DNA from: Pseudomonadota bacterium
GTDB lineage: Bacteria; Pseudomonadota; Alphaproteobacteria; RF32; CAG-239
Direction of reading: 5' to 3'
Length of the DNA: 64,000 nt
Assembly (NCBI GenBank): GCA_030523245.1
Contig: JAUNIW010000001.1
Span: forward strand, 18,971-82,970
The stretch's first letter is position 1. Every line of letters starts with the position of its first letter. Under the pieces are notes generated by a model. The model was not told the origin of the DNA. It worked only from the letters and a program-made list of their open reading frames with translations, and made no database searches. The position numbers and the translations under genes are program-made. Of the stretch, positions 3,719 through 37,327 are shown piece by piece.

Positions 3719-3727
3719 TTTTCACTC

Positions 3728-5509: not shown

Positions 5510-5512
5510 TTT

Positions 5513-8315: not shown

Positions 8316-8332
8316 GGATTTTCTCCTCTAAG

Positions 8333-10718: not shown

Positions 10719-10791
10719 AATATTTCTTTCAAAGTTGTATCTCATCGTATTTTCCTATAATACAGGTTGAAATTAAAATAGCAAGCAGAAG

Positions 10792-13137: not shown

Positions 13138-13205
13138 GCTGTCTGATTTGTATGCTGCCGGTATTTTCCCGGCAGCATACAATAATCAAAATAGGGAGAA
13201 AGACA

Positions 13206-13517
13206 ATGTGTATGAAAATATTAAAACTTTTGTATAACAATAAACAAGTATTGGCTTTGTTTCTTTTAGTATTTTTATACACATCTGATGCGTATGCCGT
13301 GTTTGAAGAATTGAATAAAGCAGGAGAAAGTATCTTTTCCGGTTTGAAAAGTATTGTTATACCGGCAGGTCTTATCGGTATGACCTGCTGCTGTATTGCC
13401 GGAATGTTTGGTAATTTTAACTGGAAATGGTTTGCGGCAATTGCCTTGGGCATGTTCGTGATGTATGCAATTGGTTCCGGTTCTGATTCGTTAAATGCGT
13501 TATCCGGAAGTCAATAG
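13206..13517 (+). CDS. virB2: VirB2/TrbC-family T4SS pilin, paralog 2
   Basis: The ATG at 13206 follows GGGAGA. 103 aa with the same architecture (signal ..SDAYA, then IPAGLIGMTCCCIAGMFGNFNWKWFAAIALGMFVMYAIG). Confidence 0.6.
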   Translation: MCMKILKLLYNNKQVLALFLLVFLYTSDAYAVFEELNKAGESIFSGLKSIVIPAGLIGMTCCCIAGMFGNFNWKWFAAIALGMFVMYAIGSGSDSLNALSGSQ

Positions 13518-13529
13518 GGGAGAAACAAG

Positions 13530-13913
13530 ATGAATAAAAACATTCTTAAACTTTTCTTACTGATGGTGGCTGTTGTCTGGTTTTATCCGGCTATGGCATC
13601 AGCAGCAGACACAGCTGTTTTTGATAAGCTGTCCAATAAAGGATACTTTATTGCCAATGGTCTGATAAAAAACGGTTATATTATTGCCGGTGTTGCCTTG
13701 ATTGCCTTTTCTTTTGCTGCCGTTTTTGGTAAAATCCAGTGGAAAACACTTGGGTATATCATGATGTGTTGTTTCTTTCTGTCAGCTCTTACGGCAATTG
13801 CCACTTATGTGACCGGTTCAACCGTGACAATGGAGGGACACTTGGTTGCAAACGGAGCCGGCGGTGATAATTCTATACCGGGAAATACACAGGGGGTCAA
13901 CATTAAAAAGTAA
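13530..13913 (+). CDS. virB2: VirB2/TrbC-family T4SS pilin, paralog 3 (longer C-terminal tail)
   Basis: GGGGAG SD. 127 aa with signal ..AMASA, then IIAGVALIAFSFAAVFGKIQWKTLGYIMMCCFFLSALTAIATYV. A ~35-aa C-terminal tail is absent from paralogs 1 and 2. Confidence 0.6.
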   Translation: MNKNILKLFLLMVAVVWFYPAMASAADTAVFDKLSNKGYFIANGLIKNGYIIAGVALIAFSFAAVFGKIQWKTLGYIMMCCFFLSALTAIATYVTGSTVTMEGHLVANGAGGDNSIPGNTQGVNIKK

Positions 13914-13953: not shown

Positions 13954-14379
13954 ATGAAATTATTATCTGTTTTGACATTATTTTTGTTCATTGTGTATCC
14001 GCTGCAGGCTGCAGAGGTGGGTGATGCTCAGGCAACGCCTGGCGAGCAGACCACAAATCTTTACCGGCTCAATGCCGGTTCGGCCGTTCAATTAAAAAAA
14101 CTCCGGCAGCTGGATAAAATTCTGTCAAAAAATCCGAATTTGGTCATTACAAATAATGAGGATATTTCCGATTTACTCAGCAATAAAAAACAGGTCAACA
14201 TGGATGAGCAAAAACAACTTGCCCAGCTGCAACAGGAAACTGTCAAACGAACGGCTCAAAAGAGAAATCTGATTGTCAGTAACTCAAAAAGCTACCAGCA
14301 AATTAACAGTATTTTGGCATCTTCCGTGCGTGATACGGAAAAAATTGTTGCCCTGAAACAAAAAATGGGGAGGAGATAA
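13954..14379 (+). CDS. secreted helical protein, unknown function (T4SS operon)
   Basis: 141 aa with signal peptide MKLLSVLTLFLFIVYPLQA. The remainder is Gln/Lys-rich and helical. Its stop overlaps the virB3 ATG (TAATG), implying translational coupling. Confidence 0.55.
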   Translation: MKLLSVLTLFLFIVYPLQAAEVGDAQATPGEQTTNLYRLNAGSAVQLKKLRQLDKILSKNPNLVITNNEDISDLLSNKKQVNMDEQKQLAQLQQETVKRTAQKRNLIVSNSKSYQQINSILASSVRDTEKIVALKQKMGRR

Positions 14380-14669
14380 TGCGTGAAGAAATCTTAAAAG
14401 CTGTTGCGCAGCCACCGAAATTTTTGTTTGCACCGATGGTGCCGTCCATCATCAATCTTGGCGTGCAGTTTCCGATGTTATTTATGGGAATTGGTGTGGC
14501 TGATGCCAACCCGCTGCTTTTTGTTACAAGTATCCTGATTGTCCATGCTGCTTTGGTTTATGCAGGATTTAAGGAGCCGCATTTATCAACAATGCTTCAG
14601 GCCTACGGACAGACTAATAAAATTTCACACAATTTATATGAAGTGCAGGGAAATAAGTTTGAACCATGA
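14379..14669 (+). CDS. virB3: VirB3-family T4SS protein
   Basis: 96 aa with two hydrophobic segments and a KEPHLSTML motif like the VirB3 k-DP motif. It overlaps virB4 by ATGA. Confidence 0.7.
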   Translation: MREEILKAVAQPPKFLFAPMVPSIINLGVQFPMLFMGIGVADANPLLFVTSILIVHAALVYAGFKEPHLSTMLQAYGQTNKISHNLYEVQGNKFEP

Positions 14670-17095
14670 ATAATTATGATTTTATGAGCATATTTGTCGA
14701 AGGGTTGAGCAGTGCGCAGGTCATTGTCGCCCTTATCGGTATTGCATCGGCAGCATCTTTTGCCGTGTTGTTATCAACGCGTTTTGGCCGCATGGTTTTA
14801 CCGCAACCGCGTGAGTCCAGAGTTTCTGACTTTTTACCTTTTGCCAAATTGATGTCTGACGGTGTGACAATTCAGTGCAGCAACAATTCTTATGCACGGG
14901 TATTCCGGCTGGAGGGTGTGGATTTAGCCTCAGCCACCGGTGAAAAAATTTATTCGATGATGGAAGCGCGCAAGTCATGGATTGACGATATGGCGAATAT
15001 GCAGATTGTCTGTCGGGTAATCACCATGCGCGAACGGATATCTTTGGAAACAGAAAAGCGGGATTTCCATAATCAGCTGCTGGATACTATTTCGCAGTTG
15101 TGGTTTCAGAATATGAACCGTATTTACAGCAACAAGCACTATATAATAATGTCTGTTATTGACCGGAAAGATGCCCTGAAAGATTTGAACTATGCCTCAC
15201 AAAGTTTGATTTCGACAATGGGCGAGTATGGTGTCAGCCCGATGTACGAAACGGCGGACAGTAAGGCATCGGATAGTCCGTTTTATGTGTTCTCACGTAT
15301 CTGCAGTCCTATTTCCAAACCGGAACCGAAAGTCCGGAATACCGAAGGAGCAAGACTGTGTGAAATGCTAACCGCCGACCATATTCATTTTACCAAAGAA
15401 GAAGGGATTATTCACTTTTTTTCCGGAGAAAAGAATTTATACGAAATTGCCATGGGTATACGCGTCAGCGGCGAGGCTATGGATGAAAGCATGATATACT
15501 CGCTGAACGCCATAGACTGTGAACTTATTATTTTACAAAATATCCGGCCGCTGTTTCGTTCGGAAGGCCGGCTTTTACTGGTTCAACAACAACGTATGTC
15601 AAGGGTAACCAGTTTTTCCGAAAATGTGGCGGAACAATACAGCGAAGCTTTGGCAGCTATTGATGATAGTGATAATAATTACCAGTCTCTGTGTGAATAT
15701 GCCATGACGATTATCATCAAAGGCGAAAGCAAGGAGGAAATTAACTTTGGCGAGTCCGAAGTACAAAGAATATGCCGTGCCTTTGGTGTGACGCCGGTGC
15801 GTGAGGGCTGGGTAACACAGGCCGTATTCTTTACCCAGTTTCCGACGTATGATACGTATCCGAGAACCTACCGCTATTTATCCCGTGTTATTGCCATGGC
15901 AACAACTTTGGACAAGCCGTCCGAAGGATTCAGTAAAAGCGACTGGGGTAACGGTGCCATTACGGTTTTCCGTACCATGTCCGGTTCGGCCTACCGTTTT
16001 CAATTCCATGTTTCAAGTGAAGATTCCGCTGTGGCACACTGCTGCATCATCGGTCCGACCGGTCAAGGTAAAACAACGCTGTTAACGTTTTTGGCCGGAC
16101 AAGCTATGCGACACGGGGATTTACGTGTTTTCTTCTTTGACCGCCATTTGGGTGCGCAAATTTTCACAAGGGCAGTAAAAGGAGCCTACATCGGTTTTGA
16201 CGGTGATGAAAAGAACGTGTCGTTGAACCCGTTTGACTGTGCTAATACGGCAGAAAACAGGGCATTTTTACGCCGCTGGCTGAAGGCTATTACCAAAGTG
16301 GACGATGCGTTGGCGGAGCGGGAAGTTGCCCGTGCCATTACAACGGCTTTTGATTATCTGCGTCCGGAAGAGCGTTTGTTGGTTAATCTTTATAAAAGTT
16401 GTTTTTCGCCGACCGGTAATATGCGGCGCGAATTGTACCGCTGGGTAAACATGGATCAATACGGTGCAATTTTTAACGGACAGAACGACAGCCTGGACTT
16501 GAAGAGCCGCCGCTTTATGGCTTTTGACTTTACGCACATTTTTGAAGATGAAGATCTGGCGCCGGCCGTCATCAGCTATATTATGCACCGGATTCAGTCT
16601 GAAACAGGTGAAACCGGCGTTCCGTCACTGATTATGATTGATGAAACGGCGCCGATGCTGAAACACCCGATGTTCCGTGACTACTTTATTATCGGTCTGC
16701 AGGAAGGACGTAAAAAACGTCAGGCCTATCTTTGTGCATTCCAACAGCCGAATATTGTGGATAAACTGGGGGTTGGCGAAGTTATTCGAGGTCAGTGTCA
16801 GACAGTTATCTTTTTCCGCAATCCGCAGGCGCAAATGGAAGATTACGCGAACTGGAATCTGACACAAAGTGAATTGGATTTCATTTTCGGTAAAAGCTAC
16901 CGAGATTTTCCGTATGCCATTTTATTATCACGGCCGGTAACGGGTGAGTCGGTAATCTTGGATGTAAATTTAGGCGGATTAGGCAAATATTTACGGATTT
17001 ATAATTCCGGACGAAAGAACGTTTTGTTGGTTCAGCAGCTTATTCAGGAATACGGAGAAGACGGATTTGTTACAAAATATTTAAATATTGCCTAG
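14666..17095 (+). CDS. virB4: VirB4-family T4SS ATPase
   Basis: 809 aa. N-terminal TM, Walker A GPTGQGKTTLL, Walker B SLIMIDETAPM. Size and position after virB3 fit VirB4. Confidence 0.9.
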   Translation: MNNYDFMSIFVEGLSSAQVIVALIGIASAASFAVLLSTRFGRMVLPQPRESRVSDFLPFAKLMSDGVTIQCSNNSYARVFRLEGVDLASATGEKIYSMMEARKSWIDDMANMQIVCRVITMRERISLETEKRDFHNQLLDTISQLWFQNMNRIYSNKHYIIMSVIDRKDALKDLNYASQSLISTMGEYGVSPMYETADSKASDSPFYVFSRICSPISKPEPKVRNTEGARLCEMLTADHIHFTKEEGIIHFFSGEKNLYEIAMGIRVSGEAMDESMIYSLNAIDCELIILQNIRPLFRSEGRLLLVQQQRMSRVTSFSENVAEQYSEALAAIDDSDNNYQSLCEYAMTIIIKGESKEEINFGESEVQRICRAFGVTPVREGWVTQAVFFTQFPTYDTYPRTYRYLSRVIAMATTLDKPSEGFSKSDWGNGAITVFRTMSGSAYRFQFHVSSEDSAVAHCCIIGPTGQGKTTLLTFLAGQAMRHGDLRVFFFDRHLGAQIFTRAVKGAYIGFDGDEKNVSLNPFDCANTAENRAFLRRWLKAITKVDDALAEREVARAITTAFDYLRPEERLLVNLYKSCFSPTGNMRRELYRWVNMDQYGAIFNGQNDSLDLKSRRFMAFDFTHIFEDEDLAPAVISYIMHRIQSETGETGVPSLIMIDETAPMLKHPMFRDYFIIGLQEGRKKRQAYLCAFQQPNIVDKLGVGEVIRGQCQTVIFFRNPQAQMEDYANWNLTQSELDFIFGKSYRDFPYAILLSRPVTGESVILDVNLGGLGKYLRIYNSGRKNVLLVQQLIQEYGEDGFVTKYLNIA

Positions 17096-17180: not shown

Positions 17181-18056
17181 ATGGAAAAAATCAAGTCAAA
17201 GTTAATTTTATGGGGATTGGCAGGCCTTATTGCAATTTGCAGCGGAACCTCGTGTTATGCAGCAATTCCGTTGCCGACAGTAGACTGGAAAAGATTGTCT
17301 CAGTCTGCCAAAACAGTCGCTTCGCAGGCATCTCTTGTTCAAAAAGAAATACAAGAAAATCTTTATATTATTCAACAAATTCAAAACGGCGGCTATGCGG
17401 CCGCTGCCGGTGCTTTGTTTGGTAAAATCGAAAACGATGATTACGACCGTTACGGAAAAATCTGGGCAGATTCAAAAGACGCTATAAATGACGGTGCGCA
17501 GGCAGCCGGAATGAATGCTCAAGAAAAAAGTAAGAAAAAGGAAGAAAATAAAAAGAAGGCTCAAAAAGAAGGGGAAGAAATTGCGAAACAGGATGCAGAA
17601 GCTAAAGATGCAGCCGATAAAACGCATGAAAAAAATACAAATACCCTGAAAAGTCTGTATAATTGGACCAAGAAACACGGTCGTTCGGCATCTTCCGCAG
17701 TGTTTGGAACTATTAGTGCGGTTGAGGACGGCGGCGGACTGGTTAAGGTCGGTTCTGGTATATATAATGCCGGAAAAGGCTTGGGTAAAGAACTGTCTGA
17801 TGAACATAAGGCAAAGAAAGAAGCCGAAGAAAATGCTAAAAAGAAAACAGATCAGACTCAGGCTCAGACTCAGACCGATACCGGAGCAGCTCAGACGGAA
17901 TTAGAAAAAGCCAAGGCAGAGGCTGAACAGGCCAGAAAAGAATTAGAAAAGGCCAAGGCCGAAGCCGAACAATCCAAAAAAGAACTGCAGCAGCTCAAAG
18001 ATGAGTTGGAGCAACTAAAAAAACAGCTGAATAATAAGAGCGGAACAACCAATTAA
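17181..18056 (+). CDS. VirB5/TrbJ-like secreted coiled-coil protein
   Basis: 291 aa with a signal peptide ending CYA. The mature start AIPLPTVDWKRLSQSAKTVASQASLVQKEIQENL resembles the IPV-D...Q start of VirB5/TrbJ proteins. The remainder is Lys/Glu-rich coiled coil. The position after virB4 fits. Confidence 0.4.
   Translation: MEKIKSKLILWGLAGLIAICSGTSCYAAIPLPTVDWKRLSQSAKTVASQASLVQKEIQENLYIIQQIQNGGYAAAAGALFGKIENDDYDRYGKIWADSKDAINDGAQAAGMNAQEKSKKKEENKKKAQKEGEEIAKQDAEAKDAADKTHEKNTNTLKSLYNWTKKHGRSASSAVFGTISAVEDGGGLVKVGSGIYNAGKGLGKELSDEHKAKKEAEENAKKKTDQTQAQTQTDTGAAQTELEKAKAEAEQARKELEKAKAEAEQSKKELQQLKDELEQLKKQLNNKSGTTN
17898..17981 (+). repeat. 42-bp coding tandem repeat x2 (ELEKAKAEAEQ-RK/ELEKAKAEAEQ-KK)
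   Basis: gaattagaaaaagccaaggcagaggctgaacaggccagaaaa is followed directly by gaattagaaaaggccaaggccgaagccgaacaatccaaaaaa. Confidence 0.8.
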
Positions 18057-18069
18057 AAGGAGCAGGACA

Positions 18070-19008
18070 ATGAATTTTCAATCTAATAATATTCTTAAAT
18101 GCGCGGTGCTTGCTTCTTTGCTGACGGTTTATGCCGCTTGTCCGGTCAGGGCAGCTGATTCAGAGAAGTCGACAGGCGGAGCATCTTCCTCCGGAAAAAT
18201 ATACACGGGGGTCTATAACGGCCGGCAGATTATTCCGAATACAATGGCAATTTATTGTAAAACCAATGCCGAGGATATGCTTCAGGATACGAAAAAGTTA
18301 TCTGATTGTATAAATTTACTTATTAAAAACCTTAAAAGTTCGGATGCTTCGACTCGGCAGGAAGCTCAGGCGGATTACGGATTGATTCGCTATGAAGAGT
18401 TGTCAACAATGATGGCCCAATCCATCGCTAAAGGAGCGGCAATTGCCAACTATGAAGAAGTTCAGAATTCTGTAGGTGATGCCGTGAGCCAAACTCAGAC
18501 CGAGCATGAAGATAATGTGGCTGCAGCAAATGCCCTCAGTATTTCTACCGATGTGATAAACTCCATGCGCGATTTGTATGCGGAACGATTGAAATATGAA
18601 GCTGTTTTGGGAATAGAAACAGTTGATATTTCAGCTATAGCAGATGTGTCCGATTCAGAAAATGTTTTAGAGAATAAGAGTTCTTCCAAGACATCTTCAG
18701 AAGGTACGGGAAAAGAAGGCTCGGGAGAAAAAGGTTCGAAAGAAGAAGGTGAAAACGGTACATCGGAAGGTGTTAAATCTTCGGATACGGCAGAGATGTG
18801 TTCAAAAGACGGGTTGAACAAAATTACAACGCATACGGTTATCTCTTCTGCCGACGGTATCGGTAAATGTTCGGATGGAAAGAATACAGCAGCTTGTCCG
18901 GATGGTCTCTATGAATCAAACGGTACCGGTTATATTGTCTGCAGAGGCGGAAATTGTATCAGCTGTCTGGATGAAGTCGTCGTCGAAGGGACCGGAAAAG
19001 GAAATTAG
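18070..19008 (+). CDS. secreted protein, helical N-domain and Cys-rich C-terminus, unknown function
   Basis: 312 aa with signal ..CPVRA, a helical middle, a Ser/Glu/Gly/Lys low-complexity tract, and a C-terminal ~70 aa with 7 Cys. The gene is tightly spaced in the T4SS operon. Confidence 0.55.
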   Translation: MNFQSNNILKCAVLASLLTVYAACPVRAADSEKSTGGASSSGKIYTGVYNGRQIIPNTMAIYCKTNAEDMLQDTKKLSDCINLLIKNLKSSDASTRQEAQADYGLIRYEELSTMMAQSIAKGAAIANYEEVQNSVGDAVSQTQTEHEDNVAAANALSISTDVINSMRDLYAERLKYEAVLGIETVDISAIADVSDSENVLENKSSSKTSSEGTGKEGSGEKGSKEEGENGTSEGVKSSDTAEMCSKDGLNKITTHTVISSADGIGKCSDGKNTAACPDGLYESNGTGYIVCRGGNCISCLDEVVVEGTGKGN

Positions 19009-19114
19009 AAAGCTAAAAGGCGGAAAATTTCGGCAGATAAGTTTTACCGCATATAAATGATGAACAAAGAATAAAACATTACTGAATTATAAAAGAATCA
19101 TGAGGAGAAAGGAA

Positions 19115-20557
19115 ATGAAAAATAAAATAGCTGTAATATGCAGTACGATTTTGGTCCTGTCTCCTTATGTCGCAAAGGCAGACATAGATGTCATGTCTTT
19201 TGCTCAGGATCAGCTCACAAACTATCAAAAAGTTATTGATGAAAAAGTTTCCGATTATATCGGTTATGAAATGAATTTGCAGGAATTGGTCAACAGTCGT
19301 GATGTTTTAGGGGATTTAAAAAACAAAGCAAAAGGTTTTGCTATTGATGCGGCAATGAAATACGGGAGCAATATAAAAATCCGCTCGATGAGTCTGGGGG
19401 GATTAAAAGATGCCGTCAAAGGCAGTACGCCGACACCTTTACTGGCTCATTCTACCGGTAAAAAAATGTCGCGTGACAGTAAGGTGGCAAAAGATAGCGC
19501 GGAAGCCGTTTTACGGAAAAAGAAACTGAACCGGCTGCAGGTTGAAAATGTATCGACAATGTTCGCCAAAGCTTTGGTTGCACGTCGGGCCATTATCAAT
19601 GAGGAAAAGCAGCTTGCCGAAGAAGAAAAAAACGAACCGACGGATTTGACACAAGTTCTTGACGCTTATAAAAAAGTTTCAGTACGTGCGGATGGTCGCT
19701 GGAAAAGTATTTTGGACTCTCAGTCTAATCACTATGGTCAGTTGGCAACAATTGAATATCTGAATTCGGCAATTGAAAAGATTGACGAAGAGAACAAAAA
19801 AAGAGCCGAAGAAGATAAAAAAGAGAATGAAGATAATAAAAATGGTTTGGATAATACCGGTTTAACTAATCCGTTAAGCGGAGGCGATAATAAAGGTATG
19901 TCTTTAACGGATATGTATAATAAAGGAAGTGGTCTCATAAAAGATGCCAAAGACGGCAATTGGGATAAAGTTGCCAGCGGTGCACTTGGAAATATCGGTG
20001 ACTCAGGATTTGTTAACGGCCAAACCGGAAATATATTTAAAGATGTCGGATCAGGTATAACAACGGTTACAGATACGGCAAACCGTATAGAACGGGGTGA
20101 TGATGCCCTCGGTATTATCGGCGGTGTTGTTAACAGCGCAGGCAATATGGGATCTCTTGGCGAGGGTGTAAAAGGAACTATAAATAATATCGGAACAGGT
20201 GTGGATATTGCCGGCTCGGGCCGAAATACGATAAATAGTGTGAGCAATGGCGATATAAGCGGTGCATTAAACGGATTAGGCGATATGGCCGGCGGAGCAG
20301 GTGATTTAAGTACAAAGCCGTCCTCAAATACAAACAACGGTACACCGACATCTGATACACCTTCTACAACGCCGCCGGCCGGAACACCTTCTGACACGAC
20401 ATCATCAGGGACAGCTGCAGGCACATCACCGGCCGGAACGGCTTCTGACACGACATCTGATACGCCTTCCACAACGCCGCCGGCATCGTCAGGCCAAGGC
20501 GGTAAGACGACCATCAGAGGCGACGGTTGGCACTTTACAATAACCGGAACAAAATAA
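19115..20557 (+). CDS. secreted protein with Gly-rich and Thr/Ser/Pro-repeat C-terminus, unknown function
   Basis: The ATG at 19115 follows GAGGAG. 480 aa with signal ..YVAKA. The N-half is helical, followed by a Gly-rich region (GNIGDSGFVNGQTGN...GSLGEGVKGT...). TSDTPSTTPPA occurs twice in a T/S/P tract. Confidence 0.6.
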   Translation: MKNKIAVICSTILVLSPYVAKADIDVMSFAQDQLTNYQKVIDEKVSDYIGYEMNLQELVNSRDVLGDLKNKAKGFAIDAAMKYGSNIKIRSMSLGGLKDAVKGSTPTPLLAHSTGKKMSRDSKVAKDSAEAVLRKKKLNRLQVENVSTMFAKALVARRAIINEEKQLAEEEKNEPTDLTQVLDAYKKVSVRADGRWKSILDSQSNHYGQLATIEYLNSAIEKIDEENKKRAEEDKKENEDNKNGLDNTGLTNPLSGGDNKGMSLTDMYNKGSGLIKDAKDGNWDKVASGALGNIGDSGFVNGQTGNIFKDVGSGITTVTDTANRIERGDDALGIIGGVVNSAGNMGSLGEGVKGTINNIGTGVDIAGSGRNTINSVSNGDISGALNGLGDMAGGAGDLSTKPSSNTNNGTPTSDTPSTTPPAGTPSDTTSSGTAAGTSPAGTASDTTSDTPSTTPPASSGQGGKTTIRGDGWHFTITGTK

Positions 20558-20577
20558 TCAGAGAGAAAGGAAAGGCC

Positions 20578-21864
20578 ATGAAAAATATATGTAAAAAAAT
20601 TCAAATCCTTGCTCTGGTTGCGTTGATTTGTATTTTGAACAACACAAAAGCTTATGCGGCTCATAAACTGGACTTTTTTGCTCAAGCAGAAGAGGTTGGA
20701 AAGCAGGTGGAAACGTATAAAACTGATATGGAAGAAGAATACAATGCCGCGATGTCTGATTTAAAAGGAAAAGTTATGGCGGCAACAGGTTTGGAAGGTT
20801 CCGCTCTCTTCAATATGCTTATGACGGAATTAGGCGATGTTGGCAAGGATTTCGTTAAAAATATGGGAAATCAGCTGAAAAACGGCGAATTTGATGTTGG
20901 TGCTGCTTTTAATGATTCAGCCAGAGATTATGCTAATTTGTCGTTATCGGCTGCGACGGCAGAAAACCTTTTTAAAGATTATGCTCAGACCTTAGAAGCC
21001 GAACGAACCAAACAACTGGCTGAAATTAACAAAGCTTTGGAAGAAATTAACAAAGAAATTGAACAGGCTGCCGGTGACGAGGAAAAAACAGCAGAACTTA
21101 TGACGAGAAAAGACGAACTGGAAAAAACAAAAATAGAAATTGAACGTAAAGCGTCGGCACGGGATAAAAGAAAAGAAGAACTTAAGATAAATGCCGATAT
21201 TGCAAAACGAAAAGCCAATGAGGTCCAAAGCTATATGGACAGCATAAAGGTAGAACAAGTTTTAGACTTGTTTGGTGAAAAATCAGAAGATGGTGAAAGT
21301 ATTGAAGAAAAAGAAAAGGCTGAGCGTCTGGATGAAATGTACGGAGCCAATATTGATGAATTTTTCTTAGGTAAATATGAAGTTCTTAATTCCGAAACAA
21401 TGGCGCGGGTTCGGGCCAACCGTCAGAAAGAATATTACCGCTCTCTGCAGAATCTGATGCGGGTTATTATGATCGGTGCTTATAAAGGACAGAGCATTGC
21501 AGATAAAAGAGATGCCCTTTTGGATAAAACAACAGAAGCTGACGGTATTTTCGGCGGTAATGCCATGAAAATCGGCGTAGATATTCAAAAAGCCAAAATT
21601 GCTGCGCGTTATACCGAGTTGCTTCTGGCGGAAATCCGGTTTAACAGTGTTGCCGAAATGAACAGCTGGACCGATAAATACAGAAATAACAAAAAAGACG
21701 TGACGAAGTTCAATCTGGATGACTACGTTTACAAAAAGAAATCCGCCGTGCAGAAGCTTTGGGATAAAGCGATGGACAAAGGACAGGATGCGCTTCGGAA
21801 GAATCTTGATTCATCCAGTGTTTCGGATAAAGTAAACAGCGGCCTTCATTCTTTAGGCCTGTAA
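20578..21864 (+). CDS. secreted coiled-coil protein, unknown function
   Basis: The ATG at 20578 gives the signal MKNICKKIQILALVALICILNNTKAYA. 428 aa, Glu/Lys-rich and helical. Confidence 0.6.
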   Translation: MKNICKKIQILALVALICILNNTKAYAAHKLDFFAQAEEVGKQVETYKTDMEEEYNAAMSDLKGKVMAATGLEGSALFNMLMTELGDVGKDFVKNMGNQLKNGEFDVGAAFNDSARDYANLSLSAATAENLFKDYAQTLEAERTKQLAEINKALEEINKEIEQAAGDEEKTAELMTRKDELEKTKIEIERKASARDKRKEELKINADIAKRKANEVQSYMDSIKVEQVLDLFGEKSEDGESIEEKEKAERLDEMYGANIDEFFLGKYEVLNSETMARVRANRQKEYYRSLQNLMRVIMIGAYKGQSIADKRDALLDKTTEADGIFGGNAMKIGVDIQKAKIAARYTELLLAEIRFNSVAEMNSWTDKYRNNKKDVTKFNLDDYVYKKKSAVQKLWDKAMDKGQDALRKNLDSSSVSDKVNSGLHSLGL

Positions 21865-21878
21865 TAAAGGAGCTGACC

Positions 21879-24800
21879 ATGAAAAAGATTATATGCACAA
21901 TTATTTTAGCAAGCAGCCTCTTAATCAATCAGCCTGCCAAAGCCATAATATATGACTATACGCCGCTGTTACCGTATGCCACACAGGTTTGCTATCAATG
22001 TACACCGGCCGTGATTGCAACCGTATTGACATCAGCTGCCGAAGTAAAATCTTTATATGACAAGTATAAAGGCGGTCAGTTGATTACCTCCCTTTCTCAA
22101 AACGCCAAGAGTTATGCCTTGTCAACGGCCAACACCGAATTTATGAAACGTTATAATAACGTTCTTTCACGCAAGAAAGTCGTATCATATTCGCGTACGA
22201 TTGAAGACAGTAAGCTGACCGAGGCAGGAAAAATAGATGATGAAGGGAAAGTTAAAGAAGCTTTTGTAAAGCTGTTTTTCCAATATCCTTCAAACAACGG
22301 TAATGTCAGAGTAACTTATGACAATATCGGGCGTCAGTTTGTAATGGACAGCACAATGGAAATGTACATTACGGGACGTGAAATGAATATAGAATTAAAA
22401 AGTATGCTGGCCGAACTCGATAAAATCGAAAAATGTCTGGTTGCCGGCGAAGATTGCTCCGAGGCAGGCATGGAAGAATATAACTGCCAGAAAGACGGTA
22501 CGGAAGATAAAGTTTGTCTGGCCCGCAATGCATTAACAGCTGCCAGAATTTATGATAAAATTATGCGTTATAACCAGTTTTTATCGGCAATGAATGCTCA
22601 ATATGATGCCGTCAGAAGCATCAATAAGGGCATTAAAGTTCTGGAGTTTGAAGCAGACGAAAAAGATAAGAAAAAGGAAAGCAGTGTTGAAGATTTGTAT
22701 TTGGCTCAACCGGTCAAAACGGCAGAAAAAATGTCTGTCCGGACAGTGGCATCGGCTTCCGTCGAAACGAAGGATGACTTTGATACGCTGGATGATGCCG
22801 GTATTGAATCTCCGGTAAATAAAACTGAATTTGATAATATGGAAGTTGTTGCCGAAGCAACCGAAAAAATGAATGAGGCAATTTTGGCTCACAACTATAA
22901 ACAATCTTTACCACGTTATCGTGATGTGTTCAAAACCTATTATCAAATGAAAGAATACCACAATAAATCTAAAGAGATTCTTTTCAAATCAGAAGGTTGC
23001 GTTCTGAATTACTTGTCCCGCTATTTTAACAATCCGGGGATGGCCTGGGCCGGAAAAAGCTGTTCTAAGACGAGTGACGGCTACACTTGCCAGAAAAAGG
23101 TTGAAACCGTAAAAGGCAGCTATATCTATCAGTTTGCTGCGGATGAGGATACGGAAAAAGGTATATATGCCTGGCTGAAAGGGTTGTATAACAGTGCTCA
23201 GGATGAAGCAAATCTGAATTATGACGGCGTTTATACAACGGATATTCAGAATGGCGAAGCGGATGCTGAAGGTATTGTAAACAGTGTGGTAAGCAACGGT
23301 GAAGATTCAATCTATATATCTCAAGAACTGGATATGGATTCGGAAGGTGTTATGCCTTTAGATAAGCTGAAATCATTTGGAAATAAGGCTTATCAGCAGG
23401 ATAAAGACGGAAAGAATTCAAAGGCTTATAAAAAGCCGTCTATAGAAGATGAGGTCTATGCCGAATCAAGAAAAAGCGGACTGATGAACTGGACATTGGG
23501 AGCTGAGATTTCTCGTCAGATAAATTCTGATGCCATAAACGGCCGTTCGGATTTCGGAGAAGTAAAAGCCGGTTATGTCGTCTGGAACGATGTTCGCAAT
23601 TTCTATGATGCGTATCTGGAAAATAAATATGAAAATATGAAAAAATATTTATCTCAGGAAACATTGCTTTCGATGTTGCCGGAAGTGGCTGCTTCTGTAA
23701 AAGATACCTATAAATATGAGGATATCCGTGATAATAACGGCAAAGTTATTAAAACGGCCGCCCAGCAAAAAGCAGAAGATCAGCAGCTTGTTAATAAATT
23801 GCTGAACAGCGTGAAGAAAGGACCGGAACCGGACGAATTGGACAAGCTTCTGGAAGAAGAAAACAAGAAGTTATCAGAATTGACGGCAAACTATCATAAA
23901 CAGTTGTCTGCATTGCAAAATCAAAAGAAAACGATTTATAACGAAATGGACAGGGACAGCACAAAGCTGAGTAATACGATTGATGAATTAAACCAGAAAA
24001 CAAAGATAATCAGCCGAGCCGGTGCAAATAATCCGGAATCGGAAGATGCTTTGATTTATGGCAAAAAGCTGGAACGAGGTTCGGGAGTATCAGTGCAGCG
24101 GGCAAGTTATGAAAATTCAATTTCTGAAAATGACGAAGCCAAAGCGAAAGCGGTTATCGAAAAGAATAATCTTTCTAATCAAACAGAAAGTCTGAAGAGA
24201 AATATAGAAAGGAATAGAGAAAGACTGGGTAAAATTGACAGACAAATATCTCAGGTAAAAGCTGATTTCGTTAAAGATTACAATGATGTGCAGGATAAAT
24301 ATAATTCCAAAATTGATAAAGCAGCAGAAGATTATCAGGCAAAAGTAACTGCTTACAAGACAGCTCTGGATAAGCTGGCAGAGACAATGCCGATAATATC
24401 GTTGATTTCCACCTTGACGAAAAATGTGCAGGAGCAGGCTGTGGCGTTGATTAATGACAGTTACCAGAAAATCAGGGGCTTAGGCGATAAAATCTATTTG
24501 CCGAATAATACGGATGTTGCCGCGATACATAAAAAATTGTTGCAGGATTTGCGGGAGATGAATATTGAATCTGATGTTTATTCTGTTTTTGCCAAGGCAA
24601 TGGCAATAACCTTGTCAAAAGTAGCCGGTGAAGAAAAAGAAGTTGCAGACAGTGACTATTTTGTCGGTCTTGTAGCGAGAGAAAGAGACTTCATGACACC
24701 GAAAACAGCGGCGACAATTTCTGCGCCGTTCAGGGAGATTTTCCACTTTGATCTGGAAGACTATGATACGGTTTTGAAGTATAAAAAAGGCGGTATAGAC

Positions 24801-25892
24801 AGTGAACCGGCATCCGTGAAAGACATAACATTGGTTGGCCCGAGTTTTACGGAGAGCGGTCTGGATATTCCGGAAATCTGGAAATATGCCTTAAGACACC
24901 GCCAATTTGTGGAGCAGCGTCTGGATTTGACTGAATTTCTGAAGAGTGAAGATTCTGAAGAATTGTTCAGGGCGTCCGGTATTTATCCTTGTAAGGTTGG
25001 AAATAAATATGTAACGGCAACGGATAAGGCTTTCAAATATACGGAACCGTTGCCGGGCAGTGTTAAGTGTACGGGACTGGAAAACTTTTCTACAAAGAAG
25101 AAATCATGTCCGACGGCCGTATTGGATGTTGTATCAAATGTGGCCCAGTGTCTGAGCGTCGGTGCGGCAGAAAACGCAAGCAAGCTGAAACAAGGAAGTG
25201 AACTGGGGCAAATAGTACAGGTTGTCGAAATACCGTCAATTATAGGCGGAACGATTTTGCCGCAATACATAAAGATTACAAAACTGAGCTTTAATCAGGC
25301 TCTTCAGGATGCCGTCATAGTTATCAATAAGTCAACGGAATTGGATGAAGAGGAAGGTCATCAGGATTATTATAATGCAAAACGAATGATGTTTGAGCGC
25401 AACCAGTTTGGTGATTATCTGGATAATATGGAAGGCGAAAAAATGATGGCTGAAGTATGTGCGCAACAAGAGATTCAGGTTGATAAAATAAAAGAAGAAC
25501 TTCTCGAAATGTTTAATTCGCTGGGTTATACAATAGAAGATGATTTTGATTTGTATGACGAGGAAGATTACCGGAAAGCCGAGCAGGTTCTTAAAGATCA
25601 TAAAACAAGCAGTCTGCGTCGTTTGAGAGAATTGACGGAGGCTGTCAACGGAACCTCTAATATTATAAAACATAATAAAGCAAAATTGCAAAATGCCATT
25701 AAGGTTTTGGAAACAGACAGTGAAGAAAAAGTTCAGATATCAGCCGAGGACGATTTGGATGAATTGTCCGAAAAAATGAAAACGGCGGAGGCTGATCAGG
25801 CTGTGGAGAAAGCTTATGAAGAGGAAAGCGACAAAGCTTATGAAAGAGATATTCAAAGAATGCAGGCACCGTACTGTGCCGTGTATCCGTGA
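21879..25892 (+). CDS. very large secreted coiled-coil protein (1337 aa), unknown function
   Basis: GGAG SD and signal MKKIICTIILASSLLINQPAKA. No internal TM segments are visible. Long Lys/Glu/Asn/Gln helical stretches are present. It is the last gene before the first virB8. Confidence 0.65.
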   Translation: MKKIICTIILASSLLINQPAKAIIYDYTPLLPYATQVCYQCTPAVIATVLTSAAEVKSLYDKYKGGQLITSLSQNAKSYALSTANTEFMKRYNNVLSRKKVVSYSRTIEDSKLTEAGKIDDEGKVKEAFVKLFFQYPSNNGNVRVTYDNIGRQFVMDSTMEMYITGREMNIELKSMLAELDKIEKCLVAGEDCSEAGMEEYNCQKDGTEDKVCLARNALTAARIYDKIMRYNQFLSAMNAQYDAVRSINKGIKVLEFEADEKDKKKESSVEDLYLAQPVKTAEKMSVRTVASASVETKDDFDTLDDAGIESPVNKTEFDNMEVVAEATEKMNEAILAHNYKQSLPRYRDVFKTYYQMKEYHNKSKEILFKSEGCVLNYLSRYFNNPGMAWAGKSCSKTSDGYTCQKKVETVKGSYIYQFAADEDTEKGIYAWLKGLYNSAQDEANLNYDGVYTTDIQNGEADAEGIVNSVVSNGEDSIYISQELDMDSEGVMPLDKLKSFGNKAYQQDKDGKNSKAYKKPSIEDEVYAESRKSGLMNWTLGAEISRQINSDAINGRSDFGEVKAGYVVWNDVRNFYDAYLENKYENMKKYLSQETLLSMLPEVAASVKDTYKYEDIRDNNGKVIKTAAQQKAEDQQLVNKLLNSVKKGPEPDELDKLLEEENKKLSELTANYHKQLSALQNQKKTIYNEMDRDSTKLSNTIDELNQKTKIISRAGANNPESEDALIYGKKLERGSGVSVQRASYENSISENDEAKAKAVIEKNNLSNQTESLKRNIERNRERLGKIDRQISQVKADFVKDYNDVQDKYNSKIDKAAEDYQAKVTAYKTALDKLAETMPIISLISTLTKNVQEQAVALINDSYQKIRGLGDKIYLPNNTDVAAIHKKLLQDLREMNIESDVYSVFAKAMAITLSKVAGEEKEVADSDYFVGLVARERDFMTPKTAATISAPFREIFHFDLEDYDTVLKYKKGGIDSEPASVKDITLVGPSFTESGLDIPEIWKYALRHRQFVEQRLDLTEFLKSEDSEELFRASGIYPCKVGNKYVTATDKAFKYTEPLPGSVKCTGLENFSTKKKSCPTAVLDVVSNVAQCLSVGAAENASKLKQGSELGQIVQVVEIPSIIGGTILPQYIKITKLSFNQALQDAVIVINKSTELDEEEGHQDYYNAKRMMFERNQFGDYLDNMEGEKMMAEVCAQQEIQVDKIKEELLEMFNSLGYTIEDDFDLYDEEDYRKAEQVLKDHKTSSLRRLRELTEAVNGTSNIIKHNKAKLQNAIKVLETDSEEKVQISAEDDLDELSEKMKTAEADQAVEKAYEEESDKAYERDIQRMQAPYCAVYP

Positions 25893-25905: not shown

Positions 25906-26652
25906 ATGGCCGAGTTAGATAACGGAATGGATAAAAAGCTGATAGCCGATGCGAATGCGCCTCAGAAAAGCTTTAATCCGCAATATGTAACAGATGACAG
26001 AATAAACGGGCGTTCGGCAAAGGAAGTTTATTTCCGCTGGCTTTCTCGATTGGTTATGGTTTGTGCGGTTTTGTCGCTGGGAGCATTCCTTTGTGCGTCT
26101 TTGGTTATTTTCCGTCTGGCACCGGAGATTATTGTCGAACCGCTGCTGATTACCAGCCAGAATGATTCGGAAACAATGGTCAGATATGAACCGATAACAC
26201 CTAAAATGCCATCTATCAAAAAAATGACAGAATTATTTGTTAAACAATATGTCATTATGAGAAACACGGTTATAAATGACGAGGATGAAATGAGAACCAG
26301 ATGGGGACCGGGAGGTATTGTGGCATATCTTTCCACACCGCAGGTCTATCGGGAGTTTGTCGGAAAAAATATAAAAGATGTCGGCAGAATGTTTGAAAAA
26401 GGTTACTCAAAAGAAGTCCGCATTGACAGTGTCGGTCAGGTCAGTGAAAGCAGTCCGGCTTGGATTGTAAACTTTACAATCTATAATCTTTCACAAAAAA
26501 ATGAAACGAACGGACTTACCTTGAAAAAAACAAAAATGAGAGCTTCTTTAACACCGCGTTTTATTCCTGAGCGTGGTGCGGTTTATGCTCGTCTGATAAA
26601 TCCGCTCGGATTTACGGTGATTAAATATAATCAAGATGAAATTCGTGAATAA
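25906..26652 (+). CDS. virB8: VirB8-family T4SS protein, copy 1
   Basis: 248 aa with a cytoplasmic N-tail, a single TM (VMVCAVLSLGAFLCASLVIF) and a periplasmic domain containing FVKQYVIMRNTV, which resembles the VirB8 f-v--Yv--RE-y motif. Confidence 0.7.
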   Translation: MAELDNGMDKKLIADANAPQKSFNPQYVTDDRINGRSAKEVYFRWLSRLVMVCAVLSLGAFLCASLVIFRLAPEIIVEPLLITSQNDSETMVRYEPITPKMPSIKKMTELFVKQYVIMRNTVINDEDEMRTRWGPGGIVAYLSTPQVYREFVGKNIKDVGRMFEKGYSKEVRIDSVGQVSESSPAWIVNFTIYNLSQKNETNGLTLKKTKMRASLTPRFIPERGAVYARLINPLGFTVIKYNQDEIRE

Positions 26653-26995: not shown

Positions 26996-27742
26996 ATGGC
27001 TGATCAACTGGGGGTAAACAATACGCAGCAAAAACTTTTGAATTCCGGTTCACAGGTTCGGCCGGGAATGCGTTCCGGTACACGGCGTATTAACCGTAAT
27101 GAAGATAGTCTGGTTGTTAATGCCAGTGAGAAAAGATATTTGTGGACGGCACGTGCGTTTGCCGTTGTGACCGCCGTCAGCCTTTGTTGCAATATAATCT
27201 TATTGCTGACCATTGCCAATATTGTTCCGTTGTATCGGGTAGAGCCGTATCTGTTGACCTTAAGCAATAAGGAAGAGCAGGTTTACCGGATTGTTCCCTA
27301 TACACGCAATATGGATTCGAATAAGGCTATTACCGAAACATTTATTCGCGAATATATTTTGCTGCGTACGACTTTATTGCCGGACACCGAAGAAATGGAA
27401 GTCAGATGGCAGAACGGCGGTGATTTGCAGGAAATGTCATCATCTATTGTTTATCAGGACTTTTTGAAAAATACAGGCCGCAAACTGATGCAGCGTATGA
27501 AACAAGACGGCTTGACAAGTTCCGTTAAGATTTTAACCGTCAATGAAATCGAAGAAGGAACATGGCAGGTAGAATATAAAGTGGACTATTATCTGCCGTC
27601 ATCATACACACCAAAGACAATTCGTTACCGTGCCAGTCTGAAGGTGCAATATCAGCCAAGAAGAGTTCAATATAAAGAAAGGTTGAAAAATCCGGTCGGA
27701 TTTAAAGTCATTTCATACGGAACAAAGCAATTGAAAGATTAA
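26996..27742 (+). CDS. virB8: VirB8-family T4SS protein, copy 2
   Basis: 248 aa with the same architecture as copy 1 but divergent (EKRYLWTARAFAVVTAVSLCCNIILLLTIANIV TM; FIREYILLRTTL). Confidence 0.7.
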   Translation: MADQLGVNNTQQKLLNSGSQVRPGMRSGTRRINRNEDSLVVNASEKRYLWTARAFAVVTAVSLCCNIILLLTIANIVPLYRVEPYLLTLSNKEEQVYRIVPYTRNMDSNKAITETFIREYILLRTTLLPDTEEMEVRWQNGGDLQEMSSSIVYQDFLKNTGRKLMQRMKQDGLTSSVKILTVNEIEEGTWQVEYKVDYYLPSSYTPKTIRYRASLKVQYQPRRVQYKERLKNPVGFKVISYGTKQLKD

Positions 27743-27759: not shown

Positions 27760-29463
27760 ATGAAAATGAGTTTAGTAAAATGGAGCGTTTTGTTAGGGTT
27801 GGTAGGTATGGCCAATATTTGTCCGGCTCAGCTGATATCAGATACGGAAAGCTTGGATCAGTATGATGAACAGTCGCAAGGAAATTATCAGCCGATGAAT
27901 TTGAACTATGCCGGTTTTAATTCAATCGGTATGATTCAAAGCGCTTGGCAGGATCCTTTACAGAATTTGGGTGAAGGACAGACAAAACCGGCGTACTCCA
28001 AGTATTATTGGACTCCTGATTTGGTTTTACCGATACGTGTACGTGAAGGAATGATAACACTGGTAAACTTTCCGGAATGGGAATTTATTGAAAGAGTTTC
28101 TTTTGGTGATACGGGTTCATTTTCCGGAAATATTTCATCACCGAATACGGTAATGCTTTATCCGAGCAGCGGCAGTCAGGTTGGTGTGGACAGCAACGTT
28201 GTGATTGAAGGCCGCTCCGGTAACAAATATGTTTTTTATATTAAAAGTGAAGGCGTTAATACAGAGCGCTTGACGAATGCCATTATAGATATTGATGTTG
28301 TCGGAAAAAACGGCACGTCGGGAGGTAGTCCCAGTAGCAGCGTGGGGTCGTTAGGCGGTGGTTCAGGCCACATAAATGCTAATAATTTTCGTCCGGGAGG
28401 CGATAAATTGGTGGATTCGACCTTTACCAATCGTTTTCAAAAAGAAGATTGGTTGAGAAGCCTGCCGATTGATCCGGCAAAATTCAGATTTGATATCGAG
28501 ATTTATGTTCCAAATCCGGATGATGTCGTGATAGCACCGGAACGTGTCTGGCGCGATGATATTTTTACCTATATTGATTTGGGCGAAAAAGCTTTGAATA
28601 TGACACAGCGTCCGATTGTGACGTTAATCGTCGAACGCGTTGAAACGCCGGTTGGTTTTCGGACAAAAGGGCCAAACAACCGCCTGATTATTGTAGAAGG
28701 TATCGGTGATATGGTTATGCGCAGCGGTAAAAGAATGGTTTGCCTGAAATTGCGTCGTTCAGATGAAGAAGGTTTGCAGTATGTATCGTATGCCGATAAT
28801 CCGAACGACTGGGATGTTGCTCCGGCCATTCCGGACGGGAGAACGGGCCGCAGCGGAAACAGTAACAATGGCAATGGGGGAGCAGGCGGCAGTTCCGGTG
28901 CGGAAACAAGTGCTTTGAACAGCGGTGTTGCAGCCGGTGCGGTTGCCGGCGGCGCGGCAGTGTCAGGTGCGGATTCCGGTATTATTTTCAGTAACGGAAA
29001 CGGCTCAAACATGATTCGCCTGCCGAATAATATTGACGGCGGCGCGGGCGGAAGTGCTTCATCATCCGGTATATCCGGAGGAAGCGGAATGCCGGCAAAT
29101 GTTGACTGTTCCAAAATGATAAAAGCCGGAAGCAATTGCAATCCTGATGTCCAAAATCCGTATCCGCGTTATAAGTACGGCAGTGCATTTATCGGACAAG
29201 ACGGAGAAAATCTGTCGATAGAGTTGGGCACAGATTCAAATGTGAATAATCTTGAAACTCTGTGGAAAGATTTATCCGGTCGCTATTCGGCATTGCTCGG
29301 CGGGTATGAACCTTTTTATTCGGTTGACGCACCGGCAGACGGGCAGGGAAAAGAATTGTTCCACTTGCGCGTTGGACCGGTTAAAAGCTTGGAAACCGGA
29401 GATTCCGTATGCAGTCAGCTGGGGCGCGGCGGTGTATTTTGTAGTGTTGTGAGAGTGCAATAA
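27760..29463 (+). CDS. virB9: VirB9/TrbG/CagX-family protein with Gly-rich linkers and C-terminal SPOR-like domain
   Basis: 567 aa with a signal peptide. The VirB9 N-domain is IRVREGMITLVNFPEWEFIERVSFGDTGSF...NKYVFYIKSEG and the C-domain is VWRDDIFTYIDLGE...RPIVTLIVER...LIIVEGIGDMVMRSGKRMVCLK. These are followed by Gly/Ser/Ala tracts. The last ~85 aa (ENLSIELGT...LWKDLSGRYSALLGGYEPFYSV...LFHLRVGPVKSLETGDSVCSQLGRGGVFCSVV) have the SPOR beta-alpha-beta-beta pattern. Confidence 0.8.
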   Translation: MKMSLVKWSVLLGLVGMANICPAQLISDTESLDQYDEQSQGNYQPMNLNYAGFNSIGMIQSAWQDPLQNLGEGQTKPAYSKYYWTPDLVLPIRVREGMITLVNFPEWEFIERVSFGDTGSFSGNISSPNTVMLYPSSGSQVGVDSNVVIEGRSGNKYVFYIKSEGVNTERLTNAIIDIDVVGKNGTSGGSPSSSVGSLGGGSGHINANNFRPGGDKLVDSTFTNRFQKEDWLRSLPIDPAKFRFDIEIYVPNPDDVVIAPERVWRDDIFTYIDLGEKALNMTQRPIVTLIVERVETPVGFRTKGPNNRLIIVEGIGDMVMRSGKRMVCLKLRRSDEEGLQYVSYADNPNDWDVAPAIPDGRTGRSGNSNNGNGGAGGSSGAETSALNSGVAAGAVAGGAAVSGADSGIIFSNGNGSNMIRLPNNIDGGAGGSASSSGISGGSGMPANVDCSKMIKAGSNCNPDVQNPYPRYKYGSAFIGQDGENLSIELGTDSNVNNLETLWKDLSGRYSALLGGYEPFYSVDAPADGQGKELFHLRVGPVKSLETGDSVCSQLGRGGVFCSVVRVQ

Positions 29464-37318: not shown

Positions 37319-37327
37319 GAGTTGAAT

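Follow-up and report, generated by a model that had tools for sequence, protein, structure and literature searches.

We identify, in an uncultured alphaproteobacterium, a chromosomal type IV secretion system (T4SS) of mating-pair-formation type T (MPF-T) in which five consecutive genes, g1 to g5, fill the interval between virB4 and virB8. The locus lies in a 64,000-nucleotide stretch of Pseudomonadota bacterium assembly GCA_030523245.1 (RF32; CAG-239; contig JAUNIW010000001.1, positions 18,971 to 82,970 of the forward strand), hereafter the window, and a whole clade of gut and rumen Alphaproteobacteria, all uncultured, has inherited the system. We propose, at a probability of about one half, that g1-g5 constitute an expanded and diverged VirB5-type stalk or tip module together with an orphan giant protein, g5, and that with three pilins they form the exposed, target-contacting end of a domesticated T4SS. 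On profile evidence, the expansion of the VirB5 module is best read as ancient and strongly diverged. The system is recognizably MPF-T, and by analogy its logic appears to be that of a Trw-like expansion of VirB2 and VirB5.

A conserved block of exported proteins between virB4 and virB8

The five open reading frames (ORFs) described by an earlier, sequence-only reading of this DNA were confirmed on the + strand at the coordinates and lengths listed in Table 1. Each start follows a Shine-Dalgarno-like AGGAG, GGAGA or AAGGAAAGG by 5-9 nt, and because of this spacing the starts given earlier for g3 and g4 were favored over longer ORFs. Intergenic spacing is mostly 13-20 bp, with two gaps of 85 and 106 bp. 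By sequence inspection, all five carry the predicted signal peptide, with a K/R n-region, a hydrophobic core and an AXA-type cleavage site (CYA↓A, VRA↓A, AKA↓D, AYA↓A and AKA↓I). None has an internal transmembrane (TM) segment, defined as a 19-residue Kyte-Doolittle window of at least 1.6; internal hydropathy maxima are 0.84-1.47 and every window falls below 1.6. We consider it very probable that g1-g5 are Sec-exported components of the T4SS.

The Lys/Glu-rich, Gly-rich, T/S/P-rich and Cys-rich character ascribed to the block also holds. g1 (25% K+E) has a conserved mature N-terminus, (A)IPLPTVDW..., followed by a K/E/A/Q-rich coiled-coil or low-complexity tail, and the 42-bp tandem repeat reported within this gene is real and codes for ELEKAKAEAEQ(A/S)(R/K)K. 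Six Cys lie within the final 73 residues of g2, and g3 is 23% Gly over residues 250-400 and 61% S/T/P over residues 400-470. A 315-aa ORF on the - strand (19738-20685) overlaps g3; its Pro/Ser/Val-rich translation mirrors the Gly and S/T/P tract, and it is most likely a low-complexity artefact, not a gene. The C-termini of g1-g5 differ, and inspection of the sequences revealed no motif common to them.

A VirB4 scan of a genome collection returned at least 164 species-level genomes, from which 80 loci were taken. All 80 carriers are metagenome-assembled genomes (MAGs) of uncultured gut, rumen or faecal Alphaproteobacteria. Their titles include 'Azospirillum sp. 51_20' and Candidatus Scatocola, and some are titled as unrelated taxa ([Ruminococcus] gnavus, Bacteroidaceae) and look like mislabelled bins. 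Every locus that spans virB4 to virB8 completely (56 of 56) carries a linked block of four to six signal-peptide ORFs in this interval: four genes in 30 loci, five in 18 and six in 8. Because all 56 complete loci carry such genes, the block is an integral, vertically inherited part of the T4SS and not the unlinked cargo that the sequence-only reading had allowed for when it called for a check of co-conservation with the virB genes.

Comparison across these loci resolves the block into families. In four-gene loci the first gene is single and encodes 365-767 aa, in which conserved regions of ~80 aa at the N-terminus and ~200 aa at the C-terminus flank a hypervariable low-complexity linker. This gene is split in the window's subclade: g1 is the N-terminal part, and g2 is the C-terminal part with a signal peptide of its own; by blastp the core of g2 (residues ~42-198) shows homology to the C-terminal domain of the unsplit gene (E down to 1e-12). 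g3 has a helical core of ~220 aa found clade-wide (ENxSxLYAxALxxR, RW..IL), to which the window's subclade alone adds the Gly-rich and S/T/P-rich tail. g4 is found in 56 of 56 complete loci, as is g5, which in six-gene loci is split into proteins of ~222 aa and ~1225 aa; the ~222-aa gene corresponds to the N-terminal module of g5, and the C-terminus of g5 ends in a near-invariant PYCAxY. More than 100 database entries for a 411-aa g4 homologue come from one abundant gut species and have a median identity to each other of ~99%. Strain-level hypervariability of g4, or its being the target of a diversity-generating retroelement, was considered and rejected, since variants are ~99% identical with scattered substitutions.

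Profile similarity to VirB5

The nearest annotated T4SSs lie on three megaplasmids, Microvirga pMVF16-3, Erythrobacter aureus YH-07 and Sphingosinicella BN140058 p1, with VirB4 33-38% identical. These sister operons run VirB2, B3, B4, VirB5, X, VirB7, B8, B9, B10, B11 and VirD4, with a MobA/MobL relaxase upstream. X, encoded after VirB5, is a protein of 428-493 aa with a signal peptide and no TM segment, and its N-terminal half is similar to VirB5 (hhalign 97%, E 1e-10). Judged by this profile match X is a VirB5 paralogue, which would place the duplication of VirB5 before the gut clade. The X genes (L081 19932-21218; L082 19255-20736; L083 15301-16683) share a mature N-terminus of the form CP..PPPC(I/V)(V/I)xD, and the annotated starts of X in Erythrobacter and Sphingosinicella look too far downstream, removing the signal peptide.

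At their mature N-terminus g1 and its relatives carry (L/I)P(T/S)(V/F/I)D..I, a motif similar to GIPVIDP..IA in the closest bona fide VirB5, and the N-terminus of g1 aligns with the Erythrobacter VirB5 at hhalign probabilities of 37-68%. With its linker removed, the first-gene family matches the combined VirB5 and X profile over 224 collinear columns (76.6% local, 82.7% global, E 1.1e-6), with E values of 1e-6 to 2e-5 across hhalign comparisons, a reversed control at 0.1% and column-shuffle z scores of 13-16. The C-terminal domain of this family, that is, the g2 core, gives 48% (E 1.9e-4) against the same profile. The C-terminal half of g4 matches the sister VirB5 at 63-79% (E 1.6e-5 to 6.9e-5; reversed control below 1%). 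hhalign found no direct match between the g3 core and VirB5; the g3 core is linked to the de-linkered first gene (69% local, 89% global) and to g4 (52-78%, the 78% being a local alignment with de-linkered g4). Further VirB5-like traits are the site directly after virB4, the Sec signal peptide, solubility and, in the g4 model, a predicted all-helical fold.

Based on these comparisons, we hold with moderate confidence that a VirB5-like gene has been split into g1, its N-terminal half, and g2, its C-terminal half, and that g3 and g4 are further VirB5-like paralogues, with g4 a candidate for a paralogue carrying a coiled-coil insertion. The sequence-only reading had attributed a VirB5-like N-terminus to the first protein alone. 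This view needs revision, as g1 looks like half a gene that is complemented by g2, and g4 and g3 are also moderately similar to VirB5 or to each other.

Rapid divergence under purifying selection

Across the 11 nearest species, identity to the window is 93-94% for VirB4, 80-85% for VirB3, ~75% for the first VirB8 paralogue (VirB8a) and 33-52% for g1-g5. Ratios of dN/dS, calculated by the Nei-Gojobori method (NG86) on closer locus pairs, are 0.00-0.02 for VirB4, 0.01-0.08 for VirB3 and VirB8a, 0.05-0.27 for g1-g5 and 0.03-0.39 for the VirB2 paralogues. For the pair L005/L011, VirB4 has dN 0.000 and dS 0.17 (dN/dS 0.00), and g1-g5 have dN 0.029-0.056 and dS 0.15-0.34 (dN/dS 0.09-0.20); for L008/L009, VirB4 has dN 0.002 and dS 0.344 (dN/dS 0.00), and dN/dS for g1-g5 is 0.09-0.15. 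g1-g5 are functional and under purifying selection, and they are constrained far less than the motor. The same pattern of fast divergence has been reported for Bartonella TrwJ and TrwL (PMC2883598). g1-g5 diverge 10-50 times faster than VirB4 and yet remain under purifying selection, a combination that an exposed role would explain.

Families and predicted structures

The g4 profile recovers a closed family of 223 representatives within 1.84 billion proteins, and database searches with g5 found 37 homologues, none of them named or with a Pfam domain. A weak match to DUF4141 in 2 of 24 scanned family members led to no family assignment, and PDB profile searches of three families gave coiled-coil noise only. 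An AlphaFold2 (AF2) model of g5 residues 138-1337, built from a 29-sequence multiple sequence alignment (MSA), has a pLDDT of 75.3 and a pTM of 0.65. It predicts helical N-terminal parts, helices of 80 and 98 residues (652-731 and 739-836), a beta-rich domain at ~1038-1138 and a C-terminal helical bundle; the long helices would measure ~12 nm if they form a hairpin. Foldseek of the whole g5 chain against PDB and BFVD gave no match at E <= 1e-3. Look-alikes to SMC, dynein, PrgA, AhlB, TcA and tape-measure proteins were set aside as generic coiled coils, none of them reaching E 1e-3; PrgA, a surface protein of an enterococcal T4SS, came out at a non-significant E of 0.11. Within the limits of a whole-chain search, g5 is an orphan family at the level of both sequence and fold.

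Location of VirB6, VirB1 and the coupling protein

VirB6, VirB1 and VirD4 had been described as missing from this system. For the window this stands: when every non-overlapping ORF of 150 aa or more in the 64 kb was scanned with Pfam, none matched TrbL/VirB6, SLT/VirB1, the type IV coupling protein (T4CP)/VirD4 or a relaxase, and no polytopic ORF able to be VirB6 is present. A disguised VirB6 among g1-g5, which the sequence-only reading had named as a finding that would overturn it, was ruled out by hydropathy in the window and in the interval proteins of the 56 loci. None of these 258 proteins is polytopic, 256 have no internal TM segment and two have one marginal segment (Kyte-Doolittle 1.65); g1-g5 likewise lack TM helices and any match to TrbL (PF04610). 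The broader notion of a T4SS without VirB6 fares less well, as it probably reflects where the gene is located: two of the three sister systems encode it elsewhere.

The three sister megaplasmids, like the window, have no polytopic VirB6 between VirB4 and VirB8, the position at which distant T4SSs (Paracaedimonas, Nitrosospira, Caulobacter, Magnetospirillum) carry the canonical VirB5-(Eex)-VirB6 arrangement. A scan of the entire 347-kb Sphingosinicella replicon for VirB6 identified, at 88560-89885, a protein of 441 aa with six TM helices, which matches Pfam TrbL over profile positions 3-191 of 215 (E 4.2e-5, 23.8 bits, cutoff 25.9). Its gene follows two small ORFs and stands beside an SLT (VirB1-like) gene, ~25 kb from the operon. 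Erythrobacter has an orthologue with 46% identity, which is encoded ~29 kb from its own T4SS operon and carries the annotation 'type IV secretion system protein'. Sphingosinicella and Erythrobacter share a conserved cassette that encodes a soluble protein of 126-137 aa, a 2-TM protein of 95-102 aa and the 6-TM TrbL/VirB6-like protein of 436-441 aa (Table 1).

As these sister elements show, VirB6 is unlinked rather than absent in this T4SS lineage, and so is the VirB1-like SLT gene in Sphingosinicella. By parsimony, we think it likely that the VirB6 of the gut clade is encoded elsewhere in the genome, and its VirB1 probably is too, as in the nearest related systems; the striking claim that there is no VirB6 at the level of the genome is probably not true. 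VirD4 and the relaxase have been lost from the locus relative to the sister operons, and this loss is real for the 64-kb window. Because the coupling protein and relaxase of its relatives are gone from the locus, the system would no longer be a self-contained conjugation machine.

Two observations concern the sister replicons themselves. None of the three is typed as conjugative by MOB-suite, as given by PLSDB (0 of 3). Sphingosinicella sp. BN140058 p1 (347 kb, L089-L096) encodes DNA polymerase III alpha and beta, a replicative helicase, LigA, ribonucleotide reductase (RNR), RecA, ClpX, sigma factors, many DNA methyltransferases and a T2SS-E/F pilus cluster, and is a giant element of largely hypothetical genes rather than an ordinary plasmid.

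Operon and genomic setting

The region from 12.7 to 38.3 kb on the + strand is a single VirB-type T4SS operon (Table 1). Pfam and NCBIfam place VirB4 together with homologues of VirB2, B3, B8, B9, B10 and B11 in this one locus, the gene set by which MPF-T is recognized. The core machine is strongly expanded through the SPOR domain on VirB9 (peptidoglycan-binding), the beta-flower protein and the extended VirB10. The protein encoded between virB9 and virB10 is built of 4-/5-fold beta-flower, DUF3659 and YD-like repeats. The VirB7-like lipoprotein is 35% identical to the Erythrobacter VirB7 over 43 aa (tblastn), and its PCAC motif recurs in the VirB7 of all three sister megaplasmids. A third VirB8 paralogue is flanked by a 647-aa He_PIG/OEP-like protein and a MarC membrane protein; because this stray copy sits 24 kb from the operon, T4SS genes are dispersed in this genome. 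The sequence-only reading had listed neither this copy nor the VirB7-like lipoprotein.

Other features of the window lie outside the block. The signal-peptide protein u141 evolves fast (25-55% identity), is undetectable in more distant relatives and may be another minor pilus component. Chromosomal housekeeping genes (engB, yidC, gyrB, holC, lpt genes, nrdD) lie downstream. A type IVb-pilus or R64 thin-pilus-like cluster (2600-12504, - strand) is divergent from the T4SS and encodes T2SS-F, a T2SS-E ATPase, a 536-aa unknown protein, PilO (PAP), a secretin, TcpQ and a 570-aa unknown protein; it adjoins the T4SS in 53 of the 59 related loci that have the full upstream flank.

Table 1. Features of the T4SS locus in the window and of the VirB6 cassettes on two sister replicons
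Feature	Position	Strand	Evidence or remark
VirB2/TrbC, three tandem paralogues	12748-13137, 13152-13517, 13530-13913	+	Pfam TrbC, 29-37 bits
u141, 141 aa, signal peptide	13954-14379	+	between third VirB2 paralogue and VirB3
VirB3	14379-14669	+	Pfam/NCBIfam; weak, 16.6 bits
VirB4	14666-17095	+	Pfam CagE_TrbE_VirB / NCBIfam TIGR00929
g1, 291 aa	17181-18056	+	ORF, Shine-Dalgarno, signal peptide
42-bp tandem repeat within g1	17898-17984	+	TRF: 2.1 copies, 84% matches
g2, 312 aa	18070-19008	+	ORF, Shine-Dalgarno, signal peptide
g3, 480 aa	19115-20557	+	ORF, Shine-Dalgarno, signal peptide
g4, 428 aa	20578-21864	+	ORF, Shine-Dalgarno, signal peptide
g5, 1337 aa	21879-25892	+	ORF, Shine-Dalgarno, signal peptide
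VirB8 paralogue a (VirB8a)	25906-26652	+	Pfam VirB8, 51 bits
VirB7-like lipoprotein, 68 aa	26775-26981	+	lipobox LSAC; motif NELKLSPCAC; between VirB8a and VirB8b
VirB8b	26996-27742	+	Pfam VirB8
VirB9 with C-terminal SPOR domain	27760-29463	+	Pfam CagX
1211-aa beta-flower repeat protein, N-terminal TM	29475-33110	+	Pfam, hydropathy
VirB10, N-terminal extension of ~1000 aa with beta-flower repeats	33110-37318	+	Pfam TrbI
VirB11	37322-38302	+	Pfam T2SSE
Third VirB8 paralogue, orphan	62493-63269	+	Pfam VirB8, 52.7 bits; 24 kb downstream of operon
VirB6 cassette, Sphingosinicella p1	L090 37849-39885 (record 87849-89885)		
VirB6 cassette, Erythrobacter plasmid	L097 4180-6191 (record 78827-80838)		

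Comparison with known systems

VirB5/TrbJ (PF07996; TraC of pKM101, TrwJ of R388), a protein of the stalk and pilus tip, shares with the block its place after virB4, a Sec signal peptide and helical character, to which are added the collinear profile match of the first-gene family and the C-terminal match of g4, both to the sister VirB5. The block differs in having no Pfam or NCBIfam match, in the long low-complexity linker of its first gene and the splitting of that gene in two here, and in having several highly diverged paralogues in place of one protein of 220-250 aa. The sister megaplasmids agree with the window in core gene order, the PCAC VirB7, the lack of VirB6 between VirB4 and VirB8 and the presence of a second VirB5-like paralogue, X. 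They differ in having only VirB5 and X, in keeping VirD4 and the MobA/MobL relaxase beside the operon, in encoding VirB6 25-29 kb away (two of them) and in showing no detectable counterparts of g3, g4 and g5.

The Trw system of Bartonella, which mediates erythrocyte adhesion, has amplified, fast-diverging trwL and trwJ and lacks a coupling protein (PMC2883598). The analogy to Trw drawn by the sequence-only reading fits. Both systems are chromosomal, domesticated relatives of a plasmid conjugation system, with no T4CP or relaxase in the locus (here, the 64-kb window), and in both the surface components diverge far faster than the rest, the ATPase included; here there are three VirB2 paralogues and probably several VirB5-like ones. 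However, the Trw copies are recognizable recent tandem duplicates, whereas the strong divergence within the present block leaves homology with only moderate support. Moreover, trwJ is co-amplified with trwI (VirB6) and trwH (VirB7), whereas the present locus has no VirB6, a single VirB7 and, in addition, the 1337-aa orphan g5. Helicobacter CagL, CagI and CagH offer an analogy only: several small exported proteins are encoded together in an expanded T4SS with a giant VirB10, but there is no match in sequence or, for the modelled g4 and g5, in structure, and g1-g5 have no common C-terminal motif.

Weighing the explanations

We propose that g1-g5 are co-transcribed, soluble, Sec-exported components that would assemble, after export, on the periplasmic stalk and, together with the three VirB2 paralogues, be displayed at the filament tip or surface, where they would mediate contact with a target. 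In this arrangement g5 would be a clade-specific giant with an N-terminal module, a ~12-nm coiled-coil hairpin and a beta-rich and helical C-terminal part. The system may act like Bartonella Trw in adhesion, or it may secrete without a linked T4CP.

Several results weigh against this proposal. The VirB5 ancestry of g1-g5, their stalk or tip location and their function are all inferred, the ancestry with moderate confidence from sequence profiles. Searches of Pfam, NCBIfam, PHROG and PDB sequences tie none of g1-g5 to VirB5, and PF07996 (VirB5/TrbJ) matches neither these five nor the 24 first-gene and 23 g3-family relatives scanned singly, at a cutoff of 24.7 bits that the Erythrobacter VirB5, as positive control, passes with 30.3 bits. 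The hhalign probabilities linking the families to VirB5 are all below 90%, and the best of them depend on in silico removal of linkers. With raw domain profiles, paralogy among the g-families gave nothing significant, signals emerging only after the variable linkers were removed, and by BLAST these families have no detectable mutual similarity. Spurious alignment is also a risk with helical, charge-rich profiles, although no reversed control exceeded 3.5%. A short hidden Markov model of the VirB5 N-terminal motif did not separate the slot proteins from background ORFs, and a profile of four canonical VirB5s gave no signal against the gut families; canonical VirB5s match even the sister VirB5 over only 37 N-terminal columns. 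The N-terminal module of g5 matches X only faintly (10-15%, hhalign). The all-helical AF2 model of g4 (DSSP; 26-sequence MSA) has a pLDDT of 51 and a pTM of 0.31, which makes it unreliable and too poor for a test of fold; Foldseek with it gave no match at E <= 1e-3 and no VirB5 structure in the top 50. Foldseek on this poor g4 model and on g5 found no TraC, TrwJ or CagL, so that the comparison with Cag-specific proteins made in the sequence-only reading gained nothing from structure. Finally, tblastn with the sister VirB6 cassette against the window and the 80 loci (~22 kb per related genome) found no homologue, nor did a metagenome pattern scan for the VirB6 of the gut clade.

The same facts can be arranged differently. 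g1-g5 might be lineage-specific scaffold or core-complex accessory proteins, comparable to Cag3, CagM and CagT or to Dot/Icm periplasmic subunits, within an enlarged periplasmic and outer-membrane complex. The expanded machine, with its VirB9 SPOR domain, ~1000-aa VirB10 extension, 1211-aa beta-flower protein and three VirB8 copies, would suit such a role, as would the size of g5, its conservation over the whole length and its rod-plus-globular model, and the lack of any significant database match for g1-g5. We nonetheless judge this unlikely: in the same genomes g1-g5 are conserved far less well than the VirB8 and VirB9 region, the first gene and g4 are moderately similar to VirB5 by profile, and the genes occupy the VirB5 slot, upstream of VirB7. 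It is somewhat less likely still that g1-g5 leave the cell as periplasmic substrates or surface adhesins, first through Sec and then through the T4SS across the outer membrane, in the two-step manner of pertussis toxin and Ptl, a precedent in which the toxin has been discussed as a VirB5 analogue (PMC12857230). The conserved position and copy structure of the genes inside a structural operon (56 of 56 loci), the profile links to VirB5, which indicate a structural protein, and the lack of any detected toxin or enzyme domain in g1-g5 all speak against such cargo. What speaks for it is the set of Sec signal peptides on all five, which fits a system without a coupling protein; the lack of VirD4 in the window, whereas the nearest relatives have VirD4 next to VirB11; the fast divergence of g1-g5; and the Cys-rich tail of g2 and S/T/P-rich tail of g3, features frequent in extracellular proteins.

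A bolder possibility concerns the base of the stalk. If the lineage truly lacked VirB6, soluble g4 or g5 could substitute for the VirB6 pentamer, a replacement made conceivable by the topology of R388 VirB6, which is mostly periplasmic with two anchoring helices only (PMC12857230). No polytopic protein occurs in the slot of 56 loci or in the 64-kb window, and the sister VirB6 has no homologue that tblastn could find in the window or the 80 loci. However, these searches covered ~22 kb per related genome and 64 kb here in a lineage whose T4SS genes are dispersed, and the nearest relatives with the same VirB6-less operon encode a TrbL/VirB6-like protein elsewhere on the replicon; we regard a genuine replacement as improbable. 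Equally improbable, in our estimate, is its most far-reaching form: a clade-wide T4SS with neither VirB6 nor a coupling protein, in which VirB5-derived paralogues and g5 would build the stalk and variable tip of a non-conjugative adhesive or secretory organelle of new architecture. VirB6 is viewed as conserved in all T4SSs (PMC12857230), and a T4SS without it, if true, would contradict that universal conservation.

Implications

The host clade is common, and uncultured, in human, primate, ruminant and poultry gut microbiomes. Our literature searches found no paper on the T4SS of this clade, and the proposed VirB5 array with its split gene and expansion, the three families g3 to g5 and the lineage's separate VirB6 cassette appear to be undescribed in the literature found. 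That VirB6, and for one replicon VirB1 as well, can reside in a cassette away from the operon within an alphaproteobacterial T4SS lineage bears on the automated typing of T4SSs. The T4SS is vertically conserved and chromosomal, has no coupling protein or relaxase in the locus, and combines three pilins with a fast-evolving exported block of ~2850 aa; it may plausibly determine how these bacteria make contact with host cells or with other microbes. If the reading of g1-g5 as VirB5 paralogues is true, it offers four or five new protein families and would represent a second, much older case of the Trw strategy for diversifying a T4SS tip.

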